A stretch of DNA of 64,000 nt, from the NCBI GenBank assembly GCA_964035575.1, contig OZ037837.1, positions 248,001 to 312,000 on the forward strand. The letters run 5' to 3'. The notes under the pieces were generated by a model, which saw only the letters and a program-made list of their open reading frames with translations, was not told where the DNA came from and did no database searches. Source of the stretch: Rhynchopus sp. YZ270_cl-10. Its lineage: Eukaryota. Below are positions 3,128 to 31,218 of the stretch, piece by piece (within the stretch, counting starts at the first letter, position 1; every line of letters begins with the position of its first letter). Both the position numbers and the translations under genes were made by a program.

Positions 3128-3292
3128 AAATAATAAAACCTACATTCTTGAGCTCTTCTATACGAAGTGATTTTCATTGGACGCATCCACTACACACACA
3201 ATTTCAATCATTCGAGCCGAAGACACCCAAACATTTCGGCTTGTATTATTTCCTTACAACCGTACGCGTTCCGCTTCGTCTGTTGTATACAA
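3128..3292 (-). mobile_element. Short remnant of YR retroelement family A (5' end fused to 3' end)
   Basis: Reverse complement is a slightly diverged copy of 14178-14279 joined directly to a copy of 25580-25640. Confidence 0.85.
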
Positions 3293-4384
3293 TAAAAAAA
3301 CAAAAACATTACCAACTGATCTCCTTACCAATCTACTATATTGTTTTCATCGACCAGCCATCAGTACATCTGAAAAAAAAAGTTTGTAAAAATACAAGAA
3401 GAGCAATGCCTACTGATAGGTGGAAATGTTCGGAGGAAAATAGTTGAGGATATTTATTTTTAGTTTTTTTGTACAATGAATCGTTGATGAGGCACATTGT
3501 AACGGAAAGGAGGGGGGAAGTTGCGAATTGAATAATTATTTTTTGTTGCATCAACAATCAGCTACCGAGGTAGGATCTGTACACAATGTCGCCCTAAGGC
3601 TTTGTACTTAATCGGTATGGACGGAGGCCATCCTCAACCCGAGAAAGTAGCTTTTATTTGTTGATTTGCATTCAAAGTGCATTTTTTTTTTTGAGAAGAT
3701 GAACCCTAAGCCCCACATGCTTGTCTCACCCACAAATGTGCCCCCTGTAAAGGGAACAATGAATAATCAGAACAAAAGAAAAACAGCAAGAAAGAGCATG
3801 TGTTCCACTGGAGGCGGCTCTGTGACGAAGAACCTTCCACCCAGGGCCAGGGCCAGGGCCGGACTACTGAGTTATACCCCGTGTGACCCTTTTCGAGATG
3901 GGCCCCGAAAAAGCCCTATGAAGAAAGACTGTCACGCAAAATAGGGAAAGGGAAAGGGAAAGGGAAAGGAGATCTGAGATAGATAGAGAGTACCTAAAAG
4001 ACCCGCGAAGGGCGAACAGCAATGATGAAAACGGAGAGGAGGGAAGGGGGATACTTTTATCTCGAAATAGGCGCTACGATGAGGGGGGCGAATGTGGAAG
4101 CCGAAACAACCCAAAACAAATTCCAACAAAAAATCTGATGAAGATGGTGTGGTGATTTGGTGAGGGTAGAGACTGAAACATAAACGGACCCCGGCCAACC
4201 AGGACAAAGCCTGAGGAAAATCAAATAAATATTCTGCCAAATAGCAGTGTGCGTGCCATGTCAAATCAAAAGAACGGTAGTCTCTATCAAAGATCTCCCA
4301 ACACGCAGCGAAGCTGCTCCGCTAAAGCGTGTTTCAGGGGAAAGGGAAAGGGAAAGGGAAAATTTGGCGTTTATATGTCACATA

Positions 4385-11292: not shown

Positions 11293-11455
11293 GGGGAGAT
11301 CTGGTGTACAGATCGTGATCCATCGATGAGGTCCCAAAAGCAAAAATAAAACAATGTGAGGAGGGAGTTTCGTCTACTGTGACGTGCAGAGGAAAGGAAA
11401 ACACACCGGGGGGGGGAAATAATTTGTGAAAACTATTCCTGATGAAGGTGGTGTA
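11293..11455 (-). mobile_element. Short remnant of YR retroelement family B
   Basis: Diverged match to 17095-17207 continuing through GGAAAACACACC into a match to 21316-21358. Confidence 0.8.
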
Positions 11456-11556
11456 CAGATGGAAAAATGCTTGTACGACATCAAACGGTGACTTCGCTAT
11501 TATTTTGTGTTAATCGCATTGCATGCACGCCTTTGGTGCACTGTGATTTATCATGA

Positions 11557-13424: not shown

Positions 13425-14178
13425 GTTTTTGTAGCAAATGCCAGCTGGTCTGAAGAGTGATCTGACCATATTCCCCAGGTATAACTGGTACTCAAAAAAT
13501 GAATTGGCGAAGGAATCTTGCACTTTTGACCATCACACATTACATGTGTTTTTAAGGCAAAAATGACCGAAAAAGCTGCTTTTTGGCTGAATGCCAACCT
13601 TCAAAAATATTGTCATTTTTTTATAACGACTGGCAAAACATTTTTTTTTTGCCCACAATATCTCCTAACTATCCGATTTTCTGGTCCGGTAATTTTTTAG
13701 AAGAACAAACAATTTTTCAAATTTTTCATTTTTTTGGTCAAATCCAGCCTATGGTGAGGGTGTGTGTGGGTGGGTAGTGTGTGTGGGTGTGGGTGGCGCA
13801 CATCCTTATAGTAAAAACAAAAAAACTAACGTTTTTTAGAATTTAAATCTGAACTGGAGTGTGTGTACTGGGCAGTTTCACTCCCCAGTACACACACTCC
13901 AGCTAACTGCACTGGGTTTTCAGGCGAAAAGTGGCCTGTTGAAAAAGTGGTGTTTTTGTAGCAAATGCCAGCTGGTCTGAAGAGTGATCTGACCATATTC
14001 CCCAGGTATAACTGGTACTCAAAAAATGAATTGGCGAAGGAATCTTGCACTTTTGACCATCACACATTACATGTGTTTTTAAGGCAAAAATGACCGAAAA
14101 AGCTGCTTTTTGGCTGAATGCCAACCTTCAAAAATATTGTCATTTTTTTATAACGACTGGCAAAACATTTTTTTTTTG
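13425..14178. repeat. Identical 227-bp direct repeat (13425-13651 / 13952-14178)
   Basis: Base-for-base match at offset 527; the second copy is cut at its T10G tract by element A. Confidence 0.9.
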
Positions 14179-14413
14179 TATACAACAGACGAAGCGGTAC
14201 GCGTACGGTTGTAAAGAAATAATACAGACCGAAATGTTTGGGCGTCTTCGGTTCGAATGATTGGAATTGTGTGTGTAGTTCAGACATAAATACTGGCTCT
14301 TCTATCTTGTTCTTTTATTCATTGTTTTCCTTTCATTGCCCTTTGCTTGTGCTCCCCGACTCCAATTCAACCAACACTTACAGAGGGGGGTCAAAAAGTT
14401 ATTAGCGTTTTTC

Positions 14414-14446
<33 letters not shown>

Positions 14447-14449
<3 letters not shown>

Positions 14450-17100
14450 CCGTTTGAGGGCAGATCCAGAGACACTTTTGTTTTGGATGAGGTGGACTGG
14501 GTGAGCGCTAGACCTTTGCCTATTCCGGCGCAGCCCGCTCTCCTTCAACATGGTTGCGTCTTCCCCTCATGCCCCGTCGCTCATACCTCGCAGTATTGCT
14601 GGATCTGCGGATACGGCGCCCATCAGCAGTGTGTCAAGGATAAGCTCCCCACGCAAGCCATCGCCGCCGCTTTTCTCGTCAATTACCACACCGGTGAGTT
14701 TACCTGCCCTGTATGCGCCTGGGTGGACGAGGAGCCGGCCGATGTAGACCCTGTTGCGAACCTGCCTCAGCCGCCACTACACCAGGATCCTGAGCCTATT
14801 CCGCAGGGGGACCCGATTCAGGACCAGCCGCAGCCTCAGTTGGCACAGCTCATTGCACAGCTCATCGCACAGCAGCAGGACCAGCCGCCACCGCAGCTAC
14901 CCGTACCGCAGGAACAGCAGCAGCCAGGGCACGTGGCGCAGCATCCGCAGCCGCCTGTGCTCCCGGCGCAGCATCCCGTACATCAGAACCAGCAGCAGCC
15001 AGGGCACGTGGCGCAGCATCCGCAGCCGCCTGTGCTCCCGGCGCAGCATCCCGTACATCAAAACCAGCAGCAGCCAGGGCACGTGGCGCAGCATCCGCAG
15101 CCGCCTGTGCTCCCGGCGCAGCTCCCAGGACAGCCGAATCAGCAGCCGCCTCCGCAGATGGCGCAGCTTCCTGCCCAAGGTCTCGCGCAGGCCATCGCGC
15201 AGCTACTCGGGCCTCACGCGGCCCCCCCGCCGGGTCCGCAGCAGCAGCAGCAGCAGCAGCAGCAGCCGGCACAGCTGATCGCGCAGCTCCTGGCCCTACC
15301 GGCCCAACAGCCCCCTCCTGCCCAGCAAGCCCAGCCGCCGGCCCCGGGCGCGGCTCAGCAGCAGGGGGTCCCTCAGCAGGCGCAAGCCGTGCCCCAGCTT
15401 GATGCGCTAGCGCCGATCCTGCAGCAACTCTTGGCTCCGCAGCTGGCCCTACAAAACGTCATCCGGGACGTGGCCCAGCTGCGGAGCCAAGCCGGTATGG
15501 CCCTCCCCCACAATTTTAACCCCTTTTGTGCCATTGATTGGCGTCCCTTCCTCCACAACCCACAGAAGATCGGCGTACTTCGCTGGAAGCTGAAGGAGGA
15601 AGGCGGCGCACCCGCGGTTGCCTTGCGCTCCCTCCCTGCCGCCGCTAGCGCAGAAGATTGTGCCCTCGCACAAGCGCACGACAGAGTGCACGCCACTCTC
15701 TCGGGAATGCGCCGCGAGGACCCCCCCGCCAACGACGACCGCTTGTCCGACCTCCACCAACTGCTCACTTGGGCATATCGGTGTTTGTTGGTCAAGAAGT
15801 ATGATCTCGCAACGGGACATGCTTACCTTGTGCTGGCACTCGAGAAGGATTGGCAATCCTTTTCGACGGGCCACCAGGCACGCTACTCCGACCAGGCCAT
15901 ACGGACTGGGAAGGACGCGGCCCTGGATCGCAAGGACCGGTTTCGAGGGTCGCGGGGGTCGGGGAACAAGCGAGAGAGGGATACCGATAGGGAGCAGGGA
16001 AAGGGGGGGAAGCAGGGGGGGAAGCAGGGGGGGAAGCAGGGGGGGAAGCAGGGGGGGAAGCAGGGGGGGAAGCAGGGGGGGAAGCAGGGGGGGAAGCAGG
16101 GGGGGAAGCAGGGGGGGAAGCAGGGGGGGAAGCAGGGGGGGAAGCAGGGGGGGAAGCAGGGGGGGAAGCAGGGGGGGAAGCAGGGGGGGAAGCAGGGGGG
16201 GAAGCAGGGGGGGAAGCAGGGGGGGAAGCAGGGGGGGAAGCAGGGGGGGAAGCAGGGGGGGAAGCAGGGGGGGAAGCAGGGGGGGAAGCAGGGGGGGAAG
16301 CAGGGGGGGAAGCAGGGGGGGAAGCAGGGGGGGAAGCAGGGGGGGAAGCAGGGGGGGAAGCAGGGGGGGAAGCAGGGGGGGAAGCAGGGGGGGAAGCAGG
16401 GGGGGAAGCAGGGGGGGAAGCAGGGGGGGAAGCAGGGGGGGAAGCAGGGGGGGAAGCAGGGGGGGAAGCAGGGGGGGAAGCAGGGGGGGAAGCAGGGGGG
16501 GAAGCAGGGGGGGAAGCAGGGGGGGAAGCAGGGGGGGAAGCAGGGGGGGAAGCAGGGGGGGAAGCAGGGGGGGAAGCAGGGGGGGAAGCAGGGGGGGAAG
16601 CAGGGGGGGAAGCAGGGGGGGAAGCAGGGGGGGAAGCAGGGGGGGAAGCAGGGGGGGAAGCAGGGGGGGAAGCAGGGGGGGAAGCAGGGGGGGAAGCAGG
16701 GGGGGAAGCAGGGGGGGAAGCAGGGGGGGAAGCAGGGGGGGAAGCAGGGGGGGAAGCAGGGGGGGAAGCAGGGGGGGAAGCAGGGGGGGAAGCAGGGGGG
16801 GAAGCAGGGGGGGAAGCAGGGGGGGAAGCAGGGGGGGAAGCAGGGGGGGAAGCAGGGGGGGAAGCAGGGGGGGAAGCAGGGGGGGAAGCAGGGGGGGAAG
16901 CAGGGGGGGAAGCAGGGGGGGAAGCAGGGGGGGAAGCAGGGGGGGAAGCAGGGGGGGAAGCAGGGGGGGAAGCAGGGGGGGAAGCAGGGGGGGAAGCAGG
17001 GGGGGAAGCAGGGGGGGAAGCAGGGGGGGAAGCAGGGGGGGAAACAGGGGGGGAAGCAGGGGGGGAAGCAGGGGGGGAAGCAGGGGGGGAAGCAGGGGAG
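14447..17100 (+). CDS. Family A Gag-like ORF, 5' part (PHD-like finger, Q/P-rich region, GGKQ repeats); continues at 21502-22675
   Basis: C-x4-C...CxxC-x4-H-xx-C...CxxC at the N-terminus; 3x75-bp internal repeat; array variation (AAG/AAA) is synonymous in the GGKQ frame. Confidence 0.75.
16003..17094 (+). repeat. 12-bp tandem array (GGGGGGGAAGCA) x~91
   Basis: Directly visible; one AAA variant near 17043. Confidence 0.97.
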
Positions 17101-17322
17101 ATCTGGTGTACAAATAGTGATCCGTCGATGAGGTCCTGAAAGCGCAACAAAAACAATGTGAGGAGGGGTTTCGTTTATTGTGACGTACGAGGGAAGGAAA
17201 ACACACCATATACCGCTTTGGTACATCGTTTCCAGTCCGATTGACATGTGTACGACCACCACACTCTTTTGAAGAAAGGACAAGAGAAAAAGAGAAAGAA
17301 TAAAAGAAATCACAAATGCATA

Positions 17323-19866
17323 TCACTCTGAAAAACCAAAAGAATCAACCTTCTTGTGAACACGGTCCCAACACAGCGGTACCGCTATCGTTCCCTCAGA
17401 GAGATGTGTGCGCCGGGATAACTGATCCGCAGTGCTGTTCTCCTCTGAGGCGATCCACTCAACACGAAGGTGGTGTGGTTGCACAAAAGAAAAAATATAA
17501 CGTAAAAATAGGTTCCCTAGACGAGACTTTGTATGTCCCCGTCTGATCGCATGCGCCAAGCCCTCGTTGTCCACCAGCAGGAGGGTCCCACTCTTTGAGG
17601 AACCGCTCTCCAATGCAGCTCTGATGCCCTTCATCGCAGCTTCTGCCTCCAGCAGGAAGATGTCGCGGTGCGTCGCAGCCTGCACCCACTGTCCCCAGTC
17701 CGCCCCGGCCTCGGCATCGTCCAGGTGCTGCCACACAATGCCCCAACCAGTCGTACTCGCGTCCGTCCACACCACCGTGTCCCATGCAGAAGCCGGCTCC
17801 GGCAATGAAAAATCCCGAATGGGGCGCACGAAAGCATCGACAATCTCAGCCATCTCCCTCCGCAAGTCATCCGGGATCACCACCTCTACGTCCCAGTCCA
17901 GTTCGCCTCTCACGATCTTCGTGGACCACCCACTGAGGCACCGGAGTATGGCGTCGAAGTGACACAGCGGAACGCCCAGGACATGTAGCACTCGCATAGC
18001 AATACCCACCATCTGCCATATGCGCCGAATCGACAACTTCCACGCAGACGCAAATGAAACAAAAATCAGCATCACCTTCTCCCTCCACGTGCTCGGAAAC
18101 CGCAATACACCCTGCTCAGGTGACCACTCCACACCAATGTACTCCAAAGTCCGCACTGGGCTGAGGCACGATTTCTTCTCGTTTATTTCTGCTCCTGCAA
18201 AACTGAACCGTTCCAGGATCCCTGCTACCGATGCCTGAACTCCTTCACAAGACTCTCCGAAGACAAGGATGTCGTCCAAGTACACCATCGCACGCACGCC
18301 CACTGCTCTACCCACAAGCGCTTCCGCTGTGTTCTGTGCTATGTAGGGGGCCACAGACCAGCCCATCGGCACCCGAGTCCATCTGTACCAGCTTTGCCCG
18401 ACGCGAAAACAGAAGAAAGAGGAGACGTTGTTGTGGATAGGAAGTTGGTGGAAGAATCCTTTCAGGTCTATTTTTGCCAACCACGTAGCCTTCCTGTGCT
18501 TCAGGATGTGGAACAGGTGCGGCGGGGCGAAGAGGTGGAACTTTGGGGGCTTTGGCATCACGCAGTTGATGGGACGGCCGTCAATCACCGTGCGGTGAAT
18601 CAGCGGATCAGACTTCGGAACCGTAAACACCTTGACCACTCCGCGGACACACTCACGTTTCGTCACCTTCATGCAGACACCAGCCTTCAAACATGCCGAC
18701 ACAAAAGAGGGAGGGAGGTTGGATTTCGGTCCTGGGATGGGGATCTTGCCTGACTTCACCTCCGAAATAGCGTTAGGGTTCGTCATCCAGCTTGCGAAAT
18801 GTGGGTCCATACCCGCTTCCGTCGCCAGTTGCGACAGACGTTGCACGTTGATGGTGGAGGTCGGGAAGGAGTCAAGCTTTGCCTGTCTGGGGGGTGGCTT
18901 ACCCAAATCGGGCCACGTCAGGGAAGACTCTCCGGACTGCTCACCCGATACCTCATTCTCATGTTCCTCCAATATCCCCCGATAGCCCTCCTGCAGACCC
19001 CGAATCACTGAAGAGAAGACAGCAGATTCGCCTCCAGCGTTCGTCGACCCCGTGTGTTCGTCCTCAGGTAACGCACCGTCTCTGCTTCGTTCGCGTGTCT
19101 GAGGAGCTCCCGCAGCTCGCTTCTTTCCACTCCCGTCTTCTCCACCTCCTGGATCGCCCCCCGTCGTAACGAATGTAGCCATGCTGCGTTGGGAAACACC
19201 TTCTTCATAGCACGTTTCAGGCTTTCGTACACATTTGAATTCCCGCCGAAGACTAGCTGTTTTTCGTCCTTGATGCTTCGCATGAATCTCACCGCTACCG
19301 CAGTCAGTCTCCCTGGAGGCATGTTGATGGGGGGCCGCCATCCCTTGCATCCTTTCTCCCGCGCAAAGAATTCCCCCCCCACGGTGTCCAGCTTCTGCGG
19401 TGTGTCCGAGCGGAATTCCCTCCAATCTACCTTCGTGATGAAGCGCAGGTCGGGAACGCGAGCTCTCGATACCCATGCAATCGCGGCCAGTGCTGCAGCC
19501 GGCTTGTTCCCTTGCGACCACAGCGTCTCTATTGCAGTTGAAGCTTCTGTGGTGGTCATTGGTGGTGCCTGTCGCGGGCGGATCATCGTGCTCAAACGTA
19601 TAAGTCCTTTCTTTGCCTCCAGCAGCTTCCGCGTTCGAACTCCTCGCATGCCCATGCTCAGCGACTTTCGCACGATCACCTCCACGTAGGTCTGTACAGT
19701 CTTCGGAGAAGCCGATGCCAGCATCCTGTGCGCGTAGCCGATGATGAGGTCGTCGGGGGGGAGGCCGTCGCGCTGCGTCGCACGCCACTCCATAAACCGG
19801 TCGAAGACCCGGTCTTGCTCCGCCCGGTACTTCGGGGCGTTCGCAAACTGACCGAGCTGGTCCCAT
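17323..19866 (-). CDS. Reverse transcriptase / RNase H (family B)
   Basis: VFTVPK, IDGRPIN, KIDLKGFFHQ, RVPMGW, VYLDDIL, LEYIG; RNase H WTDAS..GWG, IFLLE, LVDN, NSTADQLSR. True start uncertain. Confidence 0.93.
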   Translation of the reverse strand: MGPARSVCERPEVPGGARPGLRPVYGVACDAARRPPPRRPHHRLRAQDAGIGFSEDCTDLRGGDRAKVAEHGHARSSNAEAAGGKERTYTFEHDDPPATGTTNDHHRSFNCNRDAVVAREQAGCSTGRDCMGIESSRSRPALHHEGRLEGIPLGHTAEAGHRGGGILCAGERMQGMAAPHQHASRETDCGSGEIHAKHQGRKTASLRREFKCVRKPETCYEEGVSQRSMATFVTTGGDPGGGEDGSGKKRAAGAPQTRERSRDGALPEDEHTGSTNAGGESAVFSSVIRGLQEGYRGILEEHENEVSGEQSGESSLTWPDLGKPPPRQAKLDSFPTSTINVQRLSQLATEAGMDPHFASWMTNPNAISEVKSGKIPIPGPKSNLPPSFVSACLKAGVCMKVTKRECVRGVVKVFTVPKSDPLIHRTVIDGRPINCVMPKPPKFHLFAPPHLFHILKHRKATWLAKIDLKGFFHQLPIHNNVSSFFCFRVGQSWYRWTRVPMGWSVAPYIAQNTAEALVGRAVGVRAMVYLDDILVFGESCEGVQASVAGILERFSFAGAEINEKKSCLSPVRTLEYIGVEWSPEQGVLRFPSTWREKVMLIFVSFASAWKLSIRRIWQMVGIAMRVLHVLGVPLCHFDAILRCLSGWSTKIVRGELDWDVEVVIPDDLRREMAEIVDAFVRPIRDFSLPEPASAWDTVVWTDASTTGWGIVWQHLDDAEAGADWGQWVQAATHRDIFLLEAEAAMKGIRAALESGSSKSGTLLLVDNEGLAHAIRRGHTKSRLGNLFLRYIFSFVQPHHLRVEWIASEENSTADQLSRRTHLSEGTIAVPLCWDRVHKKVDSFGFSE

Positions 19867-20549
19867 TCCAGCGTCCGGTGCAGCAGCTTCCCCAGTACCT
19901 TCCCGTCTCGTTCCGCAAACACCAAGTCCTCCACAGCTTTCGCCCTCTGCAGCGACATCTTCCTCGTCCCAAGCGACATGTGCTCCGGTAGGTGTGGTGG
20001 GGGCAGGACCTCCTTGGGCGGGGTCACCGGGTCCGTCACCAGTTTCGGCCCTGTTCGCCCCGTGTCGCTCTGTCGCACTGTGACCCAGTTCCTTGGGGAG
20101 TTCCTCGTCCCTGTTCGTCCCTTTTCTCCCTTCTGTCGTCCCTCGTCCCTCTTTGTTTGTTGTAGTTGATGTGATTTTTGACGTCGATTCACCCCATAGT
20201 TCGTTCTGTTCGACCCAGTATTTTGACCCTTGTTTCCCCCGGAGTTGTAGATGGTGTTGTTGTTGATGTTGACGCGGTGGTGGCTACTGGCGAAAAGGCT
20301 TCCCCCCTTTGCCTCCTTTCCGTCCGAAGGTCGCCGATGGGTCGAACCTCGTGCGCTTCGATCCCCTGTCGTTGTAGTTGTTGGAGGAGGTGGTGCTGTG
20401 GCGTCTCTTCGTGCCTGCAAAGCGCGCATTCGCTGCCGTCGCTGCCAGCATCGCTGCACGGCGTTGGGGGGTGGTCGAAGTGCCCATCGATGTACGGGAA
20501 CGGAACGCCCTGGCCGCCTCCAGCCCCATCGTGAAACGGTAGTGCACAC
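19005..20549 (-). CDS. Tyrosine recombinase (family B)
   Basis: Catalytic set intact: SRARVPDL (R), HSLRRG (HxxR), LRH, TVRY. Start uncertain; low-complexity N-terminus overlaps gag. Confidence 0.9.
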   Translation of the reverse strand: MCTTVSRWGWRRPGRSVPVHRWALRPPPNAVQRCWQRRQRMRALQARRDATAPPPPTTTTTGDRSARGSTHRRPSDGKEAKGGSLFASSHHRVNINNNTIYNSGGNKGQNTGSNRTNYGVNRRQKSHQLQQTKRDEGRQKGEKGRTGTRNSPRNWVTVRQSDTGRTGPKLVTDPVTPPKEVLPPPHLPEHMSLGTRKMSLQRAKAVEDLVFAERDGKVLGKLLHRTLEWDQLGQFANAPKYRAEQDRVFDRFMEWRATQRDGLPPDDLIIGYAHRMLASASPKTVQTYVEVIVRKSLSMGMRGVRTRKLLEAKKGLIRLSTMIRPRQAPPMTTTEASTAIETLWSQGNKPAAALAAIAWVSRARVPDLRFITKVDWREFRSDTPQKLDTVGGEFFAREKGCKGWRPPINMPPGRLTAVAVRFMRSIKDEKQLVFGGNSNVYESLKRAMKKVFPNAAWLHSLRRGAIQEVEKTGVERSELRELLRHANEAETVRYLRTNTRGRRTLEANLLSSLQ

Positions 20550-21288
20550 ATAGCAGGTCGTCCAGGAGGATCACGAGGAGGTCCCCCATGTTCTTCCCCT
20601 TCAGAATCTTCTGGATCAGGTTCAGAGTTCCGCGTGCCGCGTCCCGTGTGTCCCCTTCCTTATCAGGCACGTATTTTGCGAGTTGCTCCAACAGTTCGGT
20701 TTGGCCAAACCTGTCGAGTTCTTGCCAACGCGTCGGATTGAGTGCCACGGTTTCAGCGTCGGGCCCCATGTCGTCACTGCGGATGTCGCTGCGGTCGTCC
20801 GGTTGGTCGTCTGGGAAGTCCTGTGCGGCCTCGAAAGCGGCGATGCGGTCCTGCCCATCAGTCTCGCGTACCACCGGCGCAAACACAAAACGTTTCTTCA
20901 CTGCCTCGGCCGCCACTGCCTGCTCCTCTGTCTCCACAGAGGCCTTCGGAGAAGATACGTCCTCAGAGCAAGGGAAAGATGCCGCGTCCTCGCCACTCAG
21001 CAACTGCGCAAAGGTCACGTCCCCAAGGCCGTTCCTCACCGTGGCCAGAAAGAGGGCGAGACGGCGGGGCTTCGTCTTCTCCCACGCCGCCTCATTCGAC
21101 CTGGTGACCTCAATCATCACCACACCCCCCAATCCTGCCAGGGTTGCCAGGATGTAGTCCCCCGGCAAGAAGGAATCCTTCAGCGCCGTCTTCACCACAT
21201 CTGGCGCTCCCGCACAACATACGCGCATCACTTCACTCACCTTGAAGTGACAGGCCTTGCGCCCCTCAAACTCAGCTGTCAAGTCCAT
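20284..21288 (-). CDS. Gag-like ORF1 (family B)
   Basis: First ORF of the element; ATG (MDLTAEF) directly after the 24-bp repeat; basic tail ending RKGGKGGKPFRQ. Assignment is positional. Confidence 0.7.
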   Translation of the reverse strand: MDLTAEFEGRKACHFKVSEVMRVCCAGAPDVVKTALKDSFLPGDYILATLAGLGGVVMIEVTRSNEAAWEKTKPRRLALFLATVRNGLGDVTFAQLLSGEDAASFPCSEDVSSPKASVETEEQAVAAEAVKKRFVFAPVVRETDGQDRIAAFEAAQDFPDDQPDDRSDIRSDDMGPDAETVALNPTRWQELDRFGQTELLEQLAKYVPDKEGDTRDAARGTLNLIQKILKGKNMGDLLVILLDDLLCVHYRFTMGLEAARAFRSRTSMGTSTTPQRRAAMLAATAANARFAGTKRRHSTTSSNNYNDRGSKRTRFDPSATFGRKGGKGGKPFRQ

Positions 21289-21501
21289 ATTCGTACGAGG
21301 GAAGGAAAACACACCGGGGAAACAAATTTGTGGAAAAAATTCCTGATGAAGGTGGTGTGTTTTGACTTTCCCGTTCCAACCTTTGCAGAGCAAAGAGGTA
21401 ATAAAAGCAAAAATGGACCAAAGCATCTTATACTATCATCTACAGTAACACCAGATCTCCCCATGTCGCAGCAAAGCTGCTTTAACAAGTTAACTGGGGA
21501 G

Positions 21502-22675
21502 GGGGAAGCAGGGGGGGAAACAGGGGGGGAAGCAGGGGGGGAAGCAGGGGGGGAAGCAGGGGGGGAAACAGGGGGGGAAGCAGGGGGGGAAACAGGGGGG
21601 GAAACAGGGGGGGAAGCAGGGGGGGAAGCAGGGGGGGAAACAGGGGGGGAAACAGGGGGGGAAGCAGGGGGGGAAACAGGGGGGGAAACAGGGGGGGAAG
21701 CAGGGGGGGAAGCAGGGGGGGAAGCAGGGGGGGAAGCAGGGGGGGAAGCAGGGGGGGAAGCAGGGGGGGAAGCAGGGGGGGAAGCAGGGGGGGAAGCAGG
21801 GGGGGAAGCAGGGGGGGAAGCAGGGGGGGAAACAGGGGGGGAAGCAGGGGGGGAAGCAGGGGGGGAAACAGGGGGGGAAGCAGGGGGGGAAACAGGGGGG
21901 GAAACAGGGGGGGAAGCAGGGGGGGAAGCAGGGGGGGAAGCAGGGGGGGAAGCAGGGGGGGAAGCAGGGGGGGAAGCAGGGGGGGAAACAGGGGGGGAAG
22001 CAGGGGGGGAAGCAGGGGGGGAAGCAGGGGGGGAAACAGGGGGGGAAGCAGGGGGGGAAGCAGGGGGGGAAACAGGGGGGGAAACAGGGGGGGAAGCAGG
22101 GGGGGAAACAGGGGGGGAAACAGGGGGGGAAGCAGGGGGGGAAGCAGGGGGGGAAGCAGGGGGGGAAGCAGGGGGGGAAGCAGGGGGGGAAGCAGGGGGG
22201 GAAGCAGGGGGGGAAGCAGGGGGGGAAGCAGGGGGGGAAGCAGGGGGGGAAGCAGGGGGGGAAGCAGGGGGGGAAGCAGGGGGGGAAGCAGGGGGGGAAA
22301 CAGGGGGGGAAGCAGGGGGGGAAGCAGGGGGGGAAACAGGGGGGGAAACAGGGGGGGAAGCAGGGGGGGAAACAGGGGGGGAAACAGGGGGGGAAGCAGG
22401 GGGGGAAGCAGGGGGGGAAGCAGGGGGGGAAGCAGGGGGGGAAGCAGGGGGGGAAGCAGGGGGGGAAGCAGGGGGGGAAGCAGGGGGGGAAGCAGGGGGG
22501 GAAACAGGGGGGGAAGCAGGGGGGGAAGCAGGGGGGGAAGCAGGGGGGGAAGCAGGGGGGGAAGCAGGGGGGGAAGCAGGGGGGGAAGCAGGGGGGGAAG
22601 CAGGGGGGGAAGCAGGGGGGGAAACAGGGGGGGAAACAGGGGGGGAAACAGGGGACAAAACCTGCGACGCAATGA
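21502..22675 (+). repeat. 12-bp tandem array x~96 (mixed AAG/AAA), the 3' part of family A gag, ending GGKQGTKPATQ-stop
   Basis: Directly visible; TGA at 22673-22675 in the GGKQ frame. Confidence 0.93.
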
Positions 22676-25395
22676 CTAGGGTCCGCTCTTCCGAGCAACT
22701 CTCATCAAGATTCTTTTTACTCTCACCTTCTTTTTCCCCCCCCCTCCAAGTGGGGACGTTCCCGTCAGGTAGTAGCGTCTTTGGGAACTTTTCAGAGGGA
22801 ACAGATCGAGGCCTCTCTCAGGGAAACCCTCGTTCAGTCCCTCGCCCCGTCCACCCAGTCCTCGATGCAGAGTGTTTTACGCACATACCTGCAATTCAAG
22901 GAAAACTGGGAGTGGGCGACGGGCCAGTCCCTGGAACACGCGGTGGCGGTACTCTTGTTTGCAGAAAAGAAGCGGGGAGAGGGGGCAAAAAAGTCCACAG
23001 TCCTTCAGTATACCATGTCCCTAGCGGGTGCACTGAAGAGGCTGGATGGAGACCTGATTTCCCACTCCCAGCTCGTACAAGATTATCGCCAGGCCCTCAA
23101 AAGAGGCGGCGCATTGCTCTCGGAGCGCCAGGCGAAACCTGCCCTGTTTTCACAGGTGCAGACAGTTCTGGATCGGCTTCCGATGGGGGTGCTCCGTCTC
23201 GCCATTGCTTTGTGTTGGGCGGGGGCGGCTCGTGCGTCGGACGTGCTGCGCTTGAGAAGGTCGGAGCTAGTGATTCGGTCGGACTCGTCGATCCAGGTGC
23301 ACTGGACAAAGACGAAGTCCGATCCTTATCAACTAGGTCGCTTCTCGGGAGTGGTGCTCCGTCCTCAAGAGACCCGTCTTCTTTTTGTTCACCTCTCCTC
23401 CCTCACCCCCCAACAACAACTTTTCCCTTTTTCTCTAACGACAAAGGTCATCTCGGACGAGTTGAAGAAGACCTGCCCGGCGCTCACGTCCCACTCTCTC
23501 AGAAGGGGGGCGGTGCAGCACCTGGTGGGCCGGAATGTGGACCTCGAGATGATTCGCCAGCTCACCCGTCACGCGGACGTGAACTCCGTCGTGCGTTATG
23601 CGCACGAGGCGGGGGGTTCGGTCGCGGCGAGTTCGGCGGAAACATCGCGACTCCTCCTATCCTAAATCCCGCTTTCCCCTCCCCTTTATTTACACCGTGT
23701 TCTCAAAGCTTGTTTACTAATCCTTCTTTTTATTCTGCTCCATTTTCTCCTTCCCCCCCTCCCTTTTCTGTGTCTACGTGTGAGGAAGAAGACTACGGGC
23801 CGGGCCTCGACTCGCTATATGATTCTGTTTGTGTGGTTAAGATTCATAAGTCGAGTGTCAGGGCCCCGGCTGTGGTTAGCCTTTCTGAGAAGCTTGCACC
23901 CATTTGTTCCTCCTTTCTGCATTTGGATAGAGTGAAAGAACTGGACAGAGAAGGTGAGCTCAAAGGGATTTTAGATCTTATTACTGATCCCAAATGTTTT
24001 TACTCAGCCTTCAGACCGGGGTCTCTGGACCTCATTTTTTCCAACCCCAGTGTTTTTTCGTCGTCTATCTCCAGAAACATGGCACACCATCTGGACAGGT
24101 TATTGGAATACGGGGTTGTTAAACGTGTGTCAGCTCGTCAAACAGTGGTATTGCACGCATTCACCGTACCTAAGAAATCTGCGGGTGTTCGTTTTGTCGC
24201 AGATGGGCGTAAATTGAATAAGTTAATGTACCGGCCTCCTGAGATGCTTCTTCCGAAGATACCTCAGGTGATCGACAGAGTTCTGGAGTCTTCCTGGGCA
24301 GTACTTGCGGACGGCAAAAGTTGGTTTTACCAATTTGGCCTACACGAGGAAATCCAGGCTTTTTTCGGTATCAATCTGGGTCATCAGAGAGGAGATTTCA
24401 TCCAAACCAGACTCATTGCTATGTGCATGGGGTGGTCTTTCGCACCTTGTATTGCTCACCGCACTGCGAGGGTGCTCCTCCCTGATGACTCGGGTGTTAC
24501 CTGGGTGGACAACTTCATTGTTTTAGATAAGTCTCGCGAGGCTGTTACTTTTTCGTTTTCTCAGTTTTTAGCACGTTGTAAACACGTGAATGCTGTGCTA
24601 AACTTAGAAGATGAGTTTTACGGTGAACCGTTGCAAGTTTTTTGTGCCTTAGGAATTGAGTTTGATTTGGTGAATCACCGTTTTCGCGCTGAGCACAAGT
24701 GGGTCACCAAGTTGTTAAACTGTGAGGAATGGGAAAAGGTCAAGTCAAATTCTTGCACTATTCGCCAATTTTTCAAAGTTTTTGGTTCTTTGGTGTGGAA
24801 CTCTTATTCTGTTCGTTCACCCCTTTGCTACCTTCCATCTTCCCTTTCTTTTATCCGTGATGTGGCGCGGACCACTACCCAGTCACCCGAGGCGTGGGAC
24901 TTACCCCTCGATGTCAGGAGCTCTACCCTCGCCGAGCTCTCACTCCGTATGAGCGAAGTAGAGGTGAACAATTGGCAAGGGAAGCGTCCGACACAGGAGG
25001 TAACTGTGTGGTCTGATGCGTCTCAGGAAGGGTGGGCGGCGGTTTTCGAAGGTGAGAAGGAAACGGTCGCTCAGGGTCTGTTTACAGAGAACCCCGAGTG
25101 GCATATTTATATTAAAGAAATTTTTGCGGCGGCTAAAGCCATCCAACTTACCGCTTCCATGTTTAATAATAAAAAAGTTTTGTTGATGGTTGACAACATG
25201 GCTGCTGTGTACAGCATTCAACGGGGCCATTCGTCCAACTTCATCTCAAATACACTCTTGGCCAAATTATTTCGAATCGCTGAAGAAGCGAATTTGTATA
25301 TCGTGTGCACTTGGGTATCTACTTTGGTTCAGAAGGCGGATCCCTTTTCACGGGATTCGAAAGCCAAGGATCCTATTTTATTGGATGAGTTGTAA
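22672..25395 (+). CDS. Reverse transcriptase / RNase H (family A)
   Basis: AFTVPKK, RFVADGRKLN, LADGKSWFYQ, MCMGW, TWVDNF, ALGIEFD; RNase H WSDAS..GW, IYIKE, MVDN, ADPFSR. ATG overlaps the gag stop (ATGA); start uncertain. Confidence 0.9.
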   Translation: MTRVRSSEQLSSRFFLLSPSFSPPLQVGTFPSGSSVFGNFSEGTDRGLSQGNPRSVPRPVHPVLDAECFTHIPAIQGKLGVGDGPVPGTRGGGTLVCRKEAGRGGKKVHSPSVYHVPSGCTEEAGWRPDFPLPARTRLSPGPQKRRRIALGAPGETCPVFTGADSSGSASDGGAPSRHCFVLGGGGSCVGRAALEKVGASDSVGLVDPGALDKDEVRSLSTRSLLGSGAPSSRDPSSFCSPLLPHPPTTTFPFFSNDKGHLGRVEEDLPGAHVPLSQKGGGAAPGGPECGPRDDSPAHPSRGRELRRALCARGGGFGRGEFGGNIATPPILNPAFPSPLFTPCSQSLFTNPSFYSAPFSPSPPPFSVSTCEEEDYGPGLDSLYDSVCVVKIHKSSVRAPAVVSLSEKLAPICSSFLHLDRVKELDREGELKGILDLITDPKCFYSAFRPGSLDLIFSNPSVFSSSISRNMAHHLDRLLEYGVVKRVSARQTVVLHAFTVPKKSAGVRFVADGRKLNKLMYRPPEMLLPKIPQVIDRVLESSWAVLADGKSWFYQFGLHEEIQAFFGINLGHQRGDFIQTRLIAMCMGWSFAPCIAHRTARVLLPDDSGVTWVDNFIVLDKSREAVTFSFSQFLARCKHVNAVLNLEDEFYGEPLQVFCALGIEFDLVNHRFRAEHKWVTKLLNCEEWEKVKSNSCTIRQFFKVFGSLVWNSYSVRSPLCYLPSSLSFIRDVARTTTQSPEAWDLPLDVRSSTLAELSLRMSEVEVNNWQGKRPTQEVTVWSDASQEGWAAVFEGEKETVAQGLFTENPEWHIYIKEIFAAAKAIQLTASMFNNKKVLLMVDNMAAVYSIQRGHSSNFISNTLLAKLFRIAEEANLYIVCTWVSTLVQKADPFSRDSKAKDPILLDEL
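22781..23665 (+). CDS. Tyrosine recombinase (family A)
   Basis: AARASDV (R), TKTK, HSLRRG, TRH, VVRY; frame is open back to the gag stop; nested within the RT frame. Confidence 0.92.
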   Translation: MGTFQREQIEASLRETLVQSLAPSTQSSMQSVLRTYLQFKENWEWATGQSLEHAVAVLLFAEKKRGEGAKKSTVLQYTMSLAGALKRLDGDLISHSQLVQDYRQALKRGGALLSERQAKPALFSQVQTVLDRLPMGVLRLAIALCWAGAARASDVLRLRRSELVIRSDSSIQVHWTKTKSDPYQLGRFSGVVLRPQETRLLFVHLSSLTPQQQLFPFSLTTKVISDELKKTCPALTSHSLRRGAVQHLVGRNVDLEMIRQLTRHADVNSVVRYAHEAGGSVAASSAETSRLLLS

Positions 25396-25642
25396 TTCTT
25401 TTTACGGACTGGTTGGTCTTTATTTGTATAACAGTTTCGCACCGTTTTGTATCTCCACCTTAATTCTTCTAATTCGTTTCGTCTATTCCCGTTAAATTTG
25501 TTGTGGGAACTTGTCTGTAAGAATTGTTTTTCTGTTTATCTGTTCGCGTGGCGTCCCTCAGGGTCCTTAGGGTCCTGGAGGATGCGTCCAATGAAAATCA
25601 CGTCGTGTAGAAGAGTTCAAGAATGTAGGTTTTATTATTTTT

Positions 25643-25900
25643 GTATACAACAGACGAAGCGGTACGCGTACGGTTGTAAAGAAATAATACAGACCGAAAT
25701 GTTTGGGCGTCTTCGGTTCGAATGATTGGAATTGTGTGTGTAGTTCAGACATAAATACTGGCTCTTCTATCTTGTTCTTTTATTCATTGTTTTCCTTTCA
25801 TTGCCCTTTGCTTGTGCTCCCCGACTCCAATTCAACCAACACTTACAGAGGGGGGTCAAAAAGTTATTAGCGTTTTTCATTTAAAAAAAAAAAAAAAAAA
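25643..25900 (+). repeat. Second copy of the family A 5' end, head-to-tail with the 3' end
   Basis: Identical to 14178-14435 up to the poly(A) tract, then unrelated sequence; third copy at 30595-30855. Confidence 0.9.
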
Positions 25901-26442
25901 GAAAGAAGGAAAGGAGATAATTGGCGTTATTGTTGTTATTGGGATTTACAGTCTCACATTGTCTTTTTCGTTCGTTGTTCTATTTAGACACGTTGGGCCT
26001 AATGCGCCTGCACTGTTCGATGCTAGTATGTAAGCACAGAGCACCTAGGGTCTGACTATTACGCGCAGTACCGTCGAGGGACGTACTGTTGCAACGAACT
26101 TCACACCAAGAAGGAATCCTTCAGCGCCGTCTTCACCACATCTGGCGCTCCCGCACAACATACGCGCATCACTTCACTCACCTTGAAGTGACAGGCCTTG
26201 CGCCCCTCAAACTCAGCTGTCAAGTCCATATTCGTACGAGGGAAGGAAAACACACCGGGGAAACAAATTTGTGGAAAAAATTCCTGATGAAGGTGGTGTG
26301 TTTTGACTTTCCCGTTCCAACCTTTGCAGAGCAAAGAGGTAATAAAAGCAAAAATGGACCAAAGCATCTTATACTATCATCTACAGTAACACCAGATCTC
26401 CCCATGTCGCAGCAAAGCTGCTTTAACAAGTTAACTGGGGAG

Positions 26443-27628
26443 GGGGAAGCAGGGGGGGAAACAGGGGGGGAAGCAGGGGGGGAAGCAGGGGGGGAAGCAG
26501 GGGGGGAAACAGGGGGGGAAGCAGGGGGGGAAACAGGGGGGGAAACAGGGGGGGAAGCAGGGGGGGAAGCAGGGGGGGAAACAGGGGGGGAAACAGGGGG
26601 GGAAGCAGGGGGGGAAACAGGGGGGGAAACAGGGGGGGAAGCAGGGGGGGAAGCAGGGGGGGAAGCAGGGGGGGAAGCAGGGGGGGAAGCAGGGGGGGAA
26701 GCAGGGGGGGAAGCAGGGGGGGAAGCAGGGGGGGAAGCAGGGGGGGAAGCAGGGGGGGAAGCAGGGGGGGAAACAGGGGGGGAAGCAGGGGGGGAAGCAG
26801 GGGGGGAAACAGGGGGGGAAGCAGGGGGGGAAACAGGGGGGGAAACAGGGGGGGAAGCAGGGGGGGAAGCAGGGGGGGAAGCAGGGGGGGAAGCAGGGGG
26901 GGAAGCAGGGGGGGAAGCAGGGGGGGAAACAGGGGGGGAAGCAGGGGGGGAAGCAGGGGGGGAAGCAGGGGGGGAAACAGGGGGGGAAGCAGGGGGGGAA
27001 GCAGGGGGGGAAACAGGGGGGGAAACAGGGGGGGAAGCAGGGGGGGAAACAGGGGGGGAAACAGGGGGGGAAGCAGGGGGGGAAGCAGGGGGGGAAGCAG
27101 GGGGGGAAGCAGGGGGGGAAGCAGGGGGGGAAGCAGGGGGGGAAGCAGGGGGGGAAGCAGGGGGGGAAGCAGGGGGGGAAGCAGGGGGGGAAGCAGGGGG
27201 GGAAGCAGGGGGGGAAGCAGGGGGGGAAGCAGGGGGGGAAACAGGGGGGGAAGCAGGGGGGGAAGCAGGGGGGGAAACAGGGGGGGAAACAGGGGGGGAA
27301 GCAGGGGGGGAAACAGGGGGGGAAACAGGGGGGGAAGCAGGGGGGGAAGCAGGGGGGGAAGCAGGGGGGGAAGCAGGGGGGGAAGCAGGGGGGGAAGCAG
27401 GGGGGGAAGCAGGGGGGGAAGCAGGGGGGGAAGCAGGGGGGGAAGCAGGGGGGGAAACAGGGGGGGAAGCAGGGGGGGAAGCAGGGGGGGAAGCAGGGGG
27501 GGAAGCAGGGGGGGAAGCAGGGGGGGAAGCAGGGGGGGAAGCAGGGGGGGAAGCAGGGGGGGAAGCAGGGGGGGAAACAGGGGGGGAAACAGGGGGGGAA
27601 ACAGGGGACAAAACCTGCGACGCAATGA
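26443..27628 (+). repeat. Duplicated 12-bp array x~97
   Basis: Same AAG/AAA pattern as 21502-22675 with one extra unit. Confidence 0.93.
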
Positions 27629-30348
27629 CTAGGGTCCGCTCTTCCGAGCAACTCTCATCAAGATTCTTTTTACTCTCACCTTCTTTTTCCCCCCCCCTCC
27701 AAGTGGGGACGTTCCCGTCAGGTAGTAGCGTCTTTGGGAACTTTTCAGAGGGAACAGATCGAGGCCTCTCTCAGGGAAACCCTCGTTCAGTCCCTCGCCC
27801 CGTCCACCCAGTCCTCGATGCAGAGTGTTTTACGCACATACCTGCAATTCAAGGAAAACTGGGAGTGGGCGACGGGCCAGTCCCTGGAACACGCGGTGGC
27901 GGTACTCTTGTTTGCAGAAAAGAAGCGGGGAGAGGGGGCAAAAAAGTCCACAGTCCTTCAGTATACCATGTCCCTAGCGGGTGCACTGAAGAGGCTGGAT
28001 GGAGACCTGATTTCCCACTCCCAGCTCGTACAAGATTATCGCCAGGCCCTCAAAAGAGGCGGCGCATTGCTCTCGGAGCGCCAGGCGAAACCTGCCCTGT
28101 TTTCACAGGTGCAGACAGTTCTGGATCGGCTTCCGATGGGGGTGCTCCGTCTCGCCATTGCTTTGTGTTGGGCGGGGGCGGCTCGTGCGTCGGACGTGCT
28201 GCGCTTGAGAAGGTCGGAGCTAGTGATTCGGTCGGACTCGTCGATCCAGGTGCACTGGACAAAGACGAAGTCCGATCCTTATCAACTAGGTCGCTTCTCG
28301 GGAGTGGTGCTCCGTCCTCAAGAGACCCGTCTTCTTTTTGTTCACCTCTCCTCCCTCACCCCCCAACAACAACTTTTCCCTTTTTCTCTAACGACAAAGG
28401 TCATCTCGGACGAGTTGAAGAAGACCTGCCCGGCGCTCACGTCCCACTCTCTCAGAAGGGGGGCGGTGCAGCACCTGGTGGGCCGGAATGTGGACCTCGA
28501 GATGATTCGCCAGCTCACCCGTCACGCGGACGTGAACTCCGTCGTGCGTTATGCGCACGAGGCGGGGGGTTCGGTCGCGGCGAGTTCGGCGGAAACATCG
28601 CGACTCCTCCTATCCTAAATCCCGCTTTCCCCTCCCCTTTATTTACACCGTGTTCTCAAAGCTTGTTTACTAATCCTTCTTTTTATTCTGCTCCATTTTC
28701 TCCTTCCCCCCCTCCCTTTTCTGTGTCTACGTGTGAGGAAGAAGACTACGGGCCGGGCCTCGACTCGCTATATGATTCTGTTTGTGTGGTTAAGATTCAT
28801 AAGTCGAGTGTCAGGGCCCCGGCTGTGGTTAGCCTTTCTGAGAAGCTTGCACCCATTTGTTCCTCCTTTCTGCATTTGGATAGAGTGAAAGAACTGGACA
28901 GAGAAGGTGAGCTCAAAGGGATTTTAGATCTTATTACTGATCCCAAATGTTTTTACTCAGCCTTCAGACCGGGGTCTCTGGACCTCATTTTTTCCAACCC
29001 CAGTGTTTTTTCGTCGTCTATCTCCAGAAACATGGCACACCATCTGGACAGGTTATTGGAATACGGGGTTGTTAAACGTGTGTCAGCTCGTCAAACAGTG
29101 GTATTGCACGCATTCACCGTACCTAAGAAATCTGCGGGTGTTCGTTTTGTCGCAGATGGGCGTAAATTGAATAAGTTAATGTACCGGCCTCCTGAGATGC
29201 TTCTTCCGAAGATACCTCAGGTGATCGACAGAGTTCTGGAGTCTTCCTGGGCAGTACTTGCGGACGGCAAAAGTTGGTTTTACCAATTTGGCCTACACGA
29301 GGAAATCCAGGCTTTTTTCGGTATCAATCTGGGTCATCAGAGAGGAGATTTCATCCAAACCAGACTCATTGCTATGTGCATGGGGTGGTCTTTCGCACCT
29401 TGTATTGCTCACCGCACTGCGAGGGTGCTCCTCCCTGATGACTCGGGTGTTACCTGGGTGGACAACTTCATTGTTTTAGATAAGTCTCGCGAGGCTGTTA
29501 CTTTTTCGTTTTCTCAGTTTTTAGCACGTTGTAAACACGTGAATGCTGTGCTAAACTTAGAAGATGAGTTTTACGGTGAACCGTTGCAAGTTTTTTGTGC
29601 CTTAGGAATTGAGTTTGATTTGGTGAATCACCGTTTTCGCGCTGAGCACAAGTGGGTCACCAAGTTGTTAAACTGTGAGGAATGGGAAAAGGTCAAGTCA
29701 AATTCTTGCACTATTCGCCAATTTTTCAAAGTTTTTGGTTCTTTGGTGTGGAACTCTTATTCTGTTCGTTCACCCCTTTGCTACCTTCCATCTTCCCTTT
29801 CTTTTATCCGTGATGTGGCGCGGACCACTACCCAGTCACCCGAGGCGTGGGACTTACCCCTCGATGTCAGGAGCTCTACCCTCGCCGAGCTCTCACTCCG
29901 TATGAGCGAAGTAGAGGTGAACAATTGGCAAGGGAAGCGTCCGACACAGGAGGTAACTGTGTGGTCTGATGCGTCTCAGGAAGGGTGGGCGGCGGTTTTC
30001 GAAGGTGAGAAGGAAACGGTCGCTCAGGGTCTGTTTACAGAGAACCCCGAGTGGCATATTTATATTAAAGAAATTTTTGCGGCGGCTAAAGCCATCCAAC
30101 TTACCGCTTCCATGTTTAATAATAAAAAAGTTTTGTTGATGGTTGACAACATGGCTGCTGTGTACAGCATTCAACGGGGCCATTCGTCCAACTTCATCTC
30201 AAATACACTCTTGGCCAAATTATTTCGAATCGCTGAAGAAGCGAATTTGTATATCGTGTGCACTTGGGTATCTACTTTGGTTCAGAAGGCGGATCCCTTT
30301 TCACGGGATTCGAAAGCCAAGGATCCTATTTTATTGGATGAGTTGTAA
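27625..30348 (+). CDS. RT / RNase H (family A), duplicate copy
   Basis: Translation identical to 22672-25395. Confidence 0.88.
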   Translation: MTRVRSSEQLSSRFFLLSPSFSPPLQVGTFPSGSSVFGNFSEGTDRGLSQGNPRSVPRPVHPVLDAECFTHIPAIQGKLGVGDGPVPGTRGGGTLVCRKEAGRGGKKVHSPSVYHVPSGCTEEAGWRPDFPLPARTRLSPGPQKRRRIALGAPGETCPVFTGADSSGSASDGGAPSRHCFVLGGGGSCVGRAALEKVGASDSVGLVDPGALDKDEVRSLSTRSLLGSGAPSSRDPSSFCSPLLPHPPTTTFPFFSNDKGHLGRVEEDLPGAHVPLSQKGGGAAPGGPECGPRDDSPAHPSRGRELRRALCARGGGFGRGEFGGNIATPPILNPAFPSPLFTPCSQSLFTNPSFYSAPFSPSPPPFSVSTCEEEDYGPGLDSLYDSVCVVKIHKSSVRAPAVVSLSEKLAPICSSFLHLDRVKELDREGELKGILDLITDPKCFYSAFRPGSLDLIFSNPSVFSSSISRNMAHHLDRLLEYGVVKRVSARQTVVLHAFTVPKKSAGVRFVADGRKLNKLMYRPPEMLLPKIPQVIDRVLESSWAVLADGKSWFYQFGLHEEIQAFFGINLGHQRGDFIQTRLIAMCMGWSFAPCIAHRTARVLLPDDSGVTWVDNFIVLDKSREAVTFSFSQFLARCKHVNAVLNLEDEFYGEPLQVFCALGIEFDLVNHRFRAEHKWVTKLLNCEEWEKVKSNSCTIRQFFKVFGSLVWNSYSVRSPLCYLPSSLSFIRDVARTTTQSPEAWDLPLDVRSSTLAELSLRMSEVEVNNWQGKRPTQEVTVWSDASQEGWAAVFEGEKETVAQGLFTENPEWHIYIKEIFAAAKAIQLTASMFNNKKVLLMVDNMAAVYSIQRGHSSNFISNTLLAKLFRIAEEANLYIVCTWVSTLVQKADPFSRDSKAKDPILLDEL
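27734..28618 (+). CDS. Tyrosine recombinase (family A), duplicate copy
   Basis: Translation identical to 22781-23665. Confidence 0.9.
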   Translation: MGTFQREQIEASLRETLVQSLAPSTQSSMQSVLRTYLQFKENWEWATGQSLEHAVAVLLFAEKKRGEGAKKSTVLQYTMSLAGALKRLDGDLISHSQLVQDYRQALKRGGALLSERQAKPALFSQVQTVLDRLPMGVLRLAIALCWAGAARASDVLRLRRSELVIRSDSSIQVHWTKTKSDPYQLGRFSGVVLRPQETRLLFVHLSSLTPQQQLFPFSLTTKVISDELKKTCPALTSHSLRRGAVQHLVGRNVDLEMIRQLTRHADVNSVVRYAHEAGGSVAASSAETSRLLLS

Positions 30349-31218
30349 TTCTTTTTACGGACTGGTTGGTCTTTATTTGTATAACAGTTCGCACCGTTTT
30401 GTATCTCCACCTTAATTCTTCTAATTCGTTTCGTCTATTCCCGTTAAATTTGTTGTGGGAACTTGTCTGTAAGAATTGTTTTTCTGTTTATCTGTTCGCG
30501 TGGCGTCCCTCAGGGTCCTTAGGGTCCTGGAGGATGCGTCCAATGAAAATCACGTCGTGTAGAAGAGTTCAAGAATGTAGGTTTTATTATTTTTGTATAC
30601 AACAGACGAAGCGGTACGCGTACGGTTGTAAAGAAATAATACAGACCGAAATGTTTGGGCGTCTTCGGTTCGAATGATTGGAATTGTGTGTGTAGTTCAG
30701 ACATAAATACTGGCTCTTCTATCTTGTTCTTTTATTCATTGTTTTCCTTTCATTGCCCTTTGCTTGTGCTCCCCGACTCCAATTCAACCAACACTTACAG
30801 AGGGGGGTCAAAAAGTTATTAGCGTTTTTCATTTAAAAAAAAAAAAAAAAAAAAAGAAAGAAGGAAAAGAGATAATTGGCGTTATTGTTGTTATTGGGAT
30901 TTACAGTCTCACATTGTCTTTTTCGTTCGTTGTTCTATTTAGACACGTTGGGCCTAATGCGCCTGCACTGTTCGATGCTAGTATGTAAGCACAGAGCACC
31001 TAGGGTCTGACTATTACGCGCAGTACCGTCGAGGGACGTACTGTTGCAACGAACTTCACACCATTTCTCCGACTGTTTAGGTAGCCGCTTACATACAGCT
31101 CACAGGCGTCGCAGGCGGTGCACAAATACATCAGGAAGCACCTCTTGTGCCCCATACACACAGAGGATGTAACTGCCAACAGCGAAGTCCAGGTAGTCGG
31201 AAGAGCACAACTATTAGT

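Follow-up and report, generated by a model that had tools for sequence, protein, structure and literature searches.

The question raised by this locus is how one tyrosine recombinase (YR) retrotransposon came to lie inside the coding repeat of another, and over which bases the exchange took place. The locus lies in a 64,000-nucleotide stretch of Rhynchopus sp. YZ270_cl-10 (assembly GCA_964035575.1, contig OZ037837.1, positions 248,001 to 312,000), hereafter called the window and numbered from its first letter, in which element B proper (17099..21500, 4402 bp, minus strand; limits set from its junctions and its end-to-start joint) interrupts the gag-like open reading frame (ORF) of host element A (about 14170..25907, plus strand). 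A first-pass annotation had described nested YR retrotransposons with the order gag, YR, reverse transcriptase/RNase H (RT/RH), exchanged over a 6-bp GGGGAG core. The nesting and the order were borne out, and order and motifs point to VIPER/TATE and away from DIRS/Ngaro; the core was not. We propose, with a probability of roughly 0.7, that B is a young, multi-copy element of VIPER/TATE order that was likely integrated as a circle into an ordinary G7 unit of the array in A over at most GG, with no target duplication. The nested insertion is real in sequence, and A and B are likely undescribed members of the VIPER-like elements.

The sequence GGGGAG is indeed present at both B junctions (17095-17100 and 21496-21501), and excising B with one GGGGAG leaves an open 1275-aa ORF from 14447 that reads [KQGG]x90-KQGRG-[KQGG]x95. 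The target is a 12-bp array with a run of seven G (G7) in its units, the left part of which lies at 16002..17098 and the right part at 21501..22654 (both plus strand). All full units carry G7 (91/91 left and 95/95 right, 186/186 together), and the junction runs alone differ, with G4 on the left and G5 on the right. Because 4+5 = 7+2, a normal G7 unit plus a GG borne by the element accounts for both junctions, one copy of this 2-bp core being the GG at 17097..17098 and the other the GG at 21501..21502. Deletion of 17097-21500, i.e., B and one GG, gives a perfect unbroken [KQGG]x186 of 1274 aa, and the variant GRG unit that had been postulated as the target does not occur among the 186 full units. 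The AG of the left-junction hexamer is element sequence. The old remnant at 11293, previously cited in support of the hexamer, does begin with the same GGGGAG, but its AG is element sequence too, so that it lends no independent support to a 6-bp core. The prediction that excision would reopen the gag of A holds, as the insertion neither gained nor lost bases; no excised (empty) allele was seen.

The joint between the end and the start of B was found in contigs of two public runs, X1 and X2, as GGGGA-GG-AGATCT (plus strand). In X2, a 71-nt contig consists of 21456-21502 (47 letters) followed by 24 letters equal to 17099-17122, and the joint in X1 carries the first 11 of these 24 letters past the end. 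Both runs come from a single study, as two of its samples, and the assembly may derive from the same source. Relative to this observed joint the insertion is net zero in bases; a duplication of GG is also formally compatible with the homopolymer. With a homopolymer as target, GG is the upper limit of the shared core, which may be shorter still. The circle junction predicted earlier, TAACT-GGGGAG-ATCTGG, differs from the contigs, which show three more bases, and the shorter joint is not among the rows listed. An exchange over GGGGAG in a variant 15-bp array unit would also leave the hexamer at both junctions and preserve the frame on excision; tyrosine recombinases usually exchange over 6-8 bp overlaps, and rows beyond those listed could hold the predicted joint. 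Yet the joint seen is three bases longer, none of the 186 units is a variant, a normal unit explains both junctions, and several other right ends lack GGGGAG, which makes such an exchange improbable. An in-register model with a 7-bp spacer (GGGGAGG against G7) was ruled out, since the left junction has just G4 before AGATCT.

The coding content of B, all on the minus strand, fits a YR retrotransposon. Its gag-like ORF (20284..21288, 334 aa from the likely ATG), named gag by position only, gave no match in a Pfam scan; its stop is TAG and lies in frame with the RT, which would be made by read-through of this stop. The RT/RH ORF (17323..20283, 986 codons stop to stop) carries YLDD and matches PF00078 (RVT_1) with E 2e-21. 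Between them, the YR ORF (19005..20570; R...HSLRR...H...Y) overlaps the end of gag and the RT frame. It matches PF00589 weakly (E 0.019, under the cut-off), so that of the pair only the A recombinase (E 1.3e-8) exceeds the Pfam cut-off; in an alignment of the two (26%, E 5e-9), R, HSLRR, H and Y are kept in B, and the catalytic set R, HxxR, H, Y is present in both. The order of ORFs is alike in A and B (gag-like, YR, RT/RH), with overlapping YR and RT frames. The Pfam scan gave no methylase domain match in the six A and B ORFs, and no integrase or transposase among those of B. The C-terminus of the B gag, RKGGKGGK (20284-20320, minus strand), resembles the KGG-rich end of the A gag, there expanded to 186 units.

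The RT cluster of B has seven members, six of them full length (847 aa) with 1-3 residue differences from the copy in the window. These six near-identical variants indicate a young and multi-copy family, in agreement with the earlier annotation. The description of B as intact was right in part: its ORFs and catalytic motifs are present, but the window copy is not fully intact, since it has no A2-B2 repeat pair and lacks 24 bp at 21116 that are present in contigs of all three runs X1, X4 and X5. This in-frame gag deletion, which by eye sits between 6-bp direct repeats, keeps the frame open.

The terminal repeats of the B family, called repeat A and repeat B, are the basis on which its layout was read. 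In the window, the copy is arranged as A1-ORFs-B1, with a 5′ repeat A of about 209 bp (21292..21500, minus strand) and a 3′ repeat B of 109 bp (17099..17207, minus strand), which share a 24-bp direct repeat (17184-17207 and 21292-21315). The old remnant at 11293..11454 (minus strand; 87% identical to the B end over 115 bp and 83% over 66 bp) consists of part of repeat A joined to repeat B through this 24-bp repeat, which is the SIRE-like A2-B2 form; joints from repeat A to repeat B also occur in contigs of X1, X4, X5 and X6. Thus both VIPER-type joints, B|A and A|B, and solo AB are represented in the family. The A2-B2 pair of the window copy may have been lost by recombination between 109-bp B repeats after insertion; alternatively, the circle that integrated may already have been resolved at its two B|A junctions. 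In single contigs, the depth of repeat A against gag was 2083/843 (X1) and 4690/834 (X4), a weak indication since depth is no copy number. Internally deleted derivatives were also seen in X1 and X5, one without 3.7 kb (joint 17593 to 21291), and a mini copy, in one contig per run, that keeps both ends around a joint from 17141 to 21448 with 27 other letters between. RNA folding of five end or stop-codon regions singled out 21290-21400 only (z -2.4, 3/200 shuffles); the hairpin at the 5′ end of B (z -1.5) and both read-through regions were unremarkable against shuffles.

As side observations on the remnants, the one at 11293 (window 11240-11454) shares its strand with an intronless DOMON/ferric-reductase gene and stops about 50 bp before the start codon of that gene; speculatively, the AG at the end of the remnant might give this gene a trans-splice acceptor. 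Two further short, old fragments resemble repeat A of B (4114-4151, 80% over 40 bp) and repeat B of element A (11556-11631, 78% over 78 bp).

B also contains a perfect 15-bp inverted repeat (chance about 4e-6), whose inner arm at 21448..21462 lies 38 bp inside the element end and pairs with 17095-17109. This repeat raises the thought that B moved as a DNA transposon on these arms, or that another enzyme duplicated a 2-bp GG target: the junction arithmetic would be the same, and the mini copy keeps only both ends. We consider this very improbable, because no integrase or transposase was found among the B ORFs, the inner arm is not terminal, the end-to-start joint itself contains GG, and the mini copy is known from one contig per run. 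Moreover, VIPER and TATE make no target-site duplication (TSD) according to the available sections of PMC12278014.

Returning to integration of a circle over at most GG, the following course may be proposed. B RNA would be transcribed and then reverse transcribed with jumps between the split repeats to give a DNA circle, both RNA intermediate and circle being suggested by analogy with YR elements that have split direct repeats. The predicted recombinase of B would then join the GGGGA-GG-AGATCT junction of the circle to a G7 unit of the A gag array through a core of at most GG. For an element that prefers G runs, the 186-unit array would be a large target: it offers 186 G7 runs, whereas the rest of the window, arrays excluded, has 20 G7/C7 runs, so no A-specific targeting by B needs to be assumed, and that idea was dropped as unnecessary.

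Host element A is a VIPER-like YR retrotransposon of layout A1-ORFs-B1-A2. Its gag-like ORF (14447..22675, plus strand), interrupted by B, has a Cys/His-rich start, Q/P repeats and (KQGG)186. The YR ORF (22676..23665, plus strand) follows in frame behind the gag stop, and the RT/RH ORF (22672..25395, plus strand; 907 aa, P0059), with a WVDN motif, begins at an ATG overlapping that stop. At 22672-22679, CTAG comes right after the TGA, which itself overlaps the RT ATG, an arrangement that suggests possible read-through to the YR and re-initiation to the RT; we take TGA then CTAG to be a leaky-stop context, and it recurs in another A variant in an X1 contig. Behind the ORFs lie the A-family repeat B1 (25580..25640, 61 bp, plus strand) and A2 (25635-25907); no B2 repeat was found for the A copy in the window. 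A solo A-B remnant of the family, SIRE-like, lies at 3128..3305 (minus strand; 93% over 112 bp, 95% over 61 bp), and the junctions of family A are T-runs. Upstream, a 100% identical direct repeat of 227 bp (13425-13651 and 13952-14178) flanks 300 bp with a palindrome (13854-13902) and ends in the T-run where A begins. In the array, AAA-variant units number 1/91 left of B (16002-17094) and 27/95 right of it (21506-22660; Fisher p 3e-8); a recent expansion or homogenization of the left side may lie behind this.

Adjacent to A, a tandem second copy (26107..31063, plus strand, 99.66%) of 21166-26108 repeats the right end of B, the 3′ half of A and flank. The two 4.9-kb copies are told apart by a single base, by the lengths of two homopolymers and by one array unit, with a 2-bp (CA) microhomology at the join; the duplication may be real or made by the assembly. 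This bears on whether the nesting itself could be an assembly error between two repeats. Long G-rich array flanks B on both sides, a near-identical copy lies next door, and the contigs lack the 24-bp deletion; in addition, no listed contig piece spans either array-to-B junction with at least 31 letters on both sides, so that the evidence for nesting here comes from the assembly. The junctions are nevertheless precise to the base, and together they make up one normal unit and the GG that was observed independently; the deletion lies between direct repeats and keeps the frame, and contigs drop rare variants. An assembly error is therefore hardly credible.

To place both elements, their proteins were compared with public sequences. 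The RT of B has four close relatives (38-45%) and then distant RTs (21-27%), two of them with a methylase domain, among 22 matches; its YR has one relative (41%). For the RT/RH of A, the 27 matches include Diplonema papillatum proteins (45-47%) and a Rhynchopus euleeides transcript (49%). On this ground a diplonemid host is likely, the host genes having been compared with Pfam only. These proteins (P0036, P0038, P0041, P0134, P0029), with 45-49% RT/RH identity to A, are annotated just as Gag-Pol or hypothetical, and in fused ORFs they have the YR ahead of the RT; five fused relatives, from both sub-clades, have this order. An RT profile search returned 2245 clusters at E up to 1e-30, which suggests a large radiation of such elements; in the best 150 of 2245 examined, the top clusters belong to Euglenozoa, the phylum being known for three members each. 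Trees were built with FastTree from 194 of 195 rows (P0021 was too short, and most cluster-member duplicates were left out) and with IQ-TREE in quick mode from 42 chosen rows. DIRS-like rows were labeled by a methylase domain (2), by YR-last order (1) or by similarity (5). In both trees, the RT of B fell within a YLDD clade of its own. Twenty tree rows were looked up, of which none is kinetoplastid by name, two are D. papillatum and none is named VIPER or TATE. Of 552 candidate stretches in a metagenome scan with the B alignment, 34 proved to be loci, each of them distant (22-35%) and without termini for comparison; a scan of genome contigs with the A and B alignment confirmed 0 of 42 stretches, and a PDB search returned generic RTs only.

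The target preference was read from other B ends. Left ends with G4 before AGATCT (reaching 17095) are shown by the 11293 remnant and by three contigs from each of the runs X1 and X4. Among the rows listed, right ends with G5 or more after GGGGA occur in X5 (2 contigs), X4 (2 + 2) and X2 (1). B thus appears to favor purine runs rich in G (rich in C on the coding strand), though not strictly. SIRE prefers polypyrimidine tracts, a preference that was not confirmed in the literature searched.

Several observations weigh against integration of a VIPER/TATE-type circle into a G run. The sequence GGGGA is followed directly by TAA in X1, X5 and X4 (2 contigs each) and X2 (1), a single G follows in X2 (1), and one diverged X1 piece stops at TGGG. 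Together, these non-G-run pieces, which match only the last 40-150 bp of B with changes, do not fit a strict G-run target. The end-to-start joint is listed in two of the four runs compared at the right end, with no such row for X4 and X5, and the loose-end rows shown number 24 of 66 in that comparison and 21 of 147 in the other contig comparison. In the contigs, a free circle is indistinguishable from an internal B1|A2 junction or from tandem copies, and no complete A1-ORFs-B1-A2-B2 copy was seen in the window or the listed contigs. The depths in X2 (repeat A 18 and 46, gag 30, joint 15), depth being no copy number, also run against it. The RTs of A and B form one clade apart from the DIRS-like rows (support 100 in FastTree, SH-aLRT 97 in IQ-TREE), but the trees contain no protein named as VIPER or TATE, and the three kinetoplastid copies read from the available sources have RTs with xxDN (VIPER WIDN and YLDN, TATE LIDN), unlike the YLDD of B. 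Finally, with a homopolymer as target, a shared GG looks the same at this site as a blunt or heteroduplex join.

This last point leads to a model in which the recombinase of B integrates without base identity, by a blunt join or a short heteroduplex overlap such as that exemplified by Tn916-type coupling sequences; the GG would then belong to one end, and G runs would be merely preferred. In its favor, right ends in four runs are followed by TAA directly or by one G, and the solo remnant of A has 2 T on its left and 3 T on its right against 5 T at B1|A2, a sum without overlap (the remnant is about 93% identical). The listed TAA-flanked pieces, on the other hand, match only the last 42-57 bp of B with 1-5 changes, G stands on both sides of the cut in the window copy, the remnant and several contigs, and the ends of a TATE copy, by eye and in the available source, share TT. 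We regard the model as unlikely. It is possible, though doubtful, that B represents an active YLDD lineage distinct from VIPER/TATE, which enters G7/C7 homopolymers without loss through a 2-bp core and can move as a minimal A-ORFs-B circle, with the 15-bp inverted repeat taking the place of full split repeats. If true, such a lineage would offer a tractable system for the integration of split-repeat YR elements and could yield a compact recombinase with homopolymer runs as its target.

Elsewhere in the window, a Tc1/mariner-type transposon (4377-5427) has 53-bp inverted ends and a 286-codon transposase frame apparently cut short. A tandem array at 31195-50400 holds five intronless adenylate/guanylate-cyclase-like genes, about 93% alike, and 57967-63546 holds two genes with B-box and BspA-type leucine-rich repeats and with 75-bp repeats.

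The literature searched on diplonemid DIRS, Diplonema tyrosine recombinase and VIPER-like retrotransposons (Repbase and subscription journals lay outside the search) contained no description of A or B, which agrees with the earlier suggestion that both families may be new. The D. papillatum genome paper (PMC10161547), in its available sections, mentions TATE-like ORFs in passing, among DNA transposons and with no structure. For VIPER-like integration, the available sections of the papers on VIPER and TATE give no core or circle junction; here, one locus gives both junctions in a perfectly periodic target and the contigs supply the end-to-start joint, which bounds the core at 2 bp or less. With this find, the range of VIPER-like elements would no longer be confined to kinetoplastids and would likely take in diplonemids; the young B family could be assayed for integration.

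The closest known systems, compared here through the available sections of the cited papers, are VIPER and TATE, which have the order gag-YR-RT/RH and the layout A1...B1-A2-B2, SIRE being A2-B2 (PMC6681497). VIPER is known there from Trypanosoma cruzi, Crithidia and Bodo saltans. A and B resemble VIPER/SIRE in ORF order, overlapping YR and RT frames, short A/B repeats, solo A-B remnants and, as far as a homopolymer target can show it, the lack of a TSD. By eye, the motifs of VIPER (WIDN in C. fasciculata, YLDN in B. saltans, HSIKRGA) compare with WVDN of A and with HSLRRGA. B differs from VIPER in its YLDD, the 15-bp inverted repeat inside repeat A and the 24-bp repeat common to its A and B repeats, and the window copy has A1-ORFs-B1 only; the hosts of VIPER are kinetoplastids, whereas the host here is likely a diplonemid, and no VIPER protein is named among the RT matches of A and B.

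TATE shares the gene order and apparently the split repeats, and its insertions fall at one fixed position, GGG^TTA, of a tandem repeat rich in G. By eye, the L. braziliensis copy in supplement 2 of PMC6681497 has TT at either end and a single TT at B1|A2, and this 2-bp overlap resembles the GG of B. The TATE YR motif WGFAARACD likewise resembles WAGAARASD of A. The target differs, being telomeres for TATE but in the present case a G7 run within a second element as well as further purine tracts, and the YR ORF has about 980 aa in TATE as against about 300-520 here.

DIRS-1-like elements share RT/RH and YR with B, and for them too integration of a circle over a very short junction identity, 3 bp without TSD, has been proposed; nested insertion is common in DIRS (PMC7192593, PMC3266345). 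In the accessible parts of these sources, however, DIRS elements have the YR last, a methylase, and long inverted termini with an internal complementary region that is complementary to both ends, whereas B has the YR before the RT, no methylase match and a single 15-bp pair, the inverted arm of which matches just one of the two ends. Ngaro/PAT-like elements resemble those described here in their solo AB repeats and apparently in split direct repeats (PMC8547959, PMC7192593), solo AB repeats being known for Ngaro (PMC8547959); in Ngaro, RT/RH precedes the YR, and PAT-like elements have a methylase, neither of which is seen in A or B. Since nested YR insertions and short cores are already known for the order DIRS, the B insertion in A extends a known kind of event and overturns nothing.

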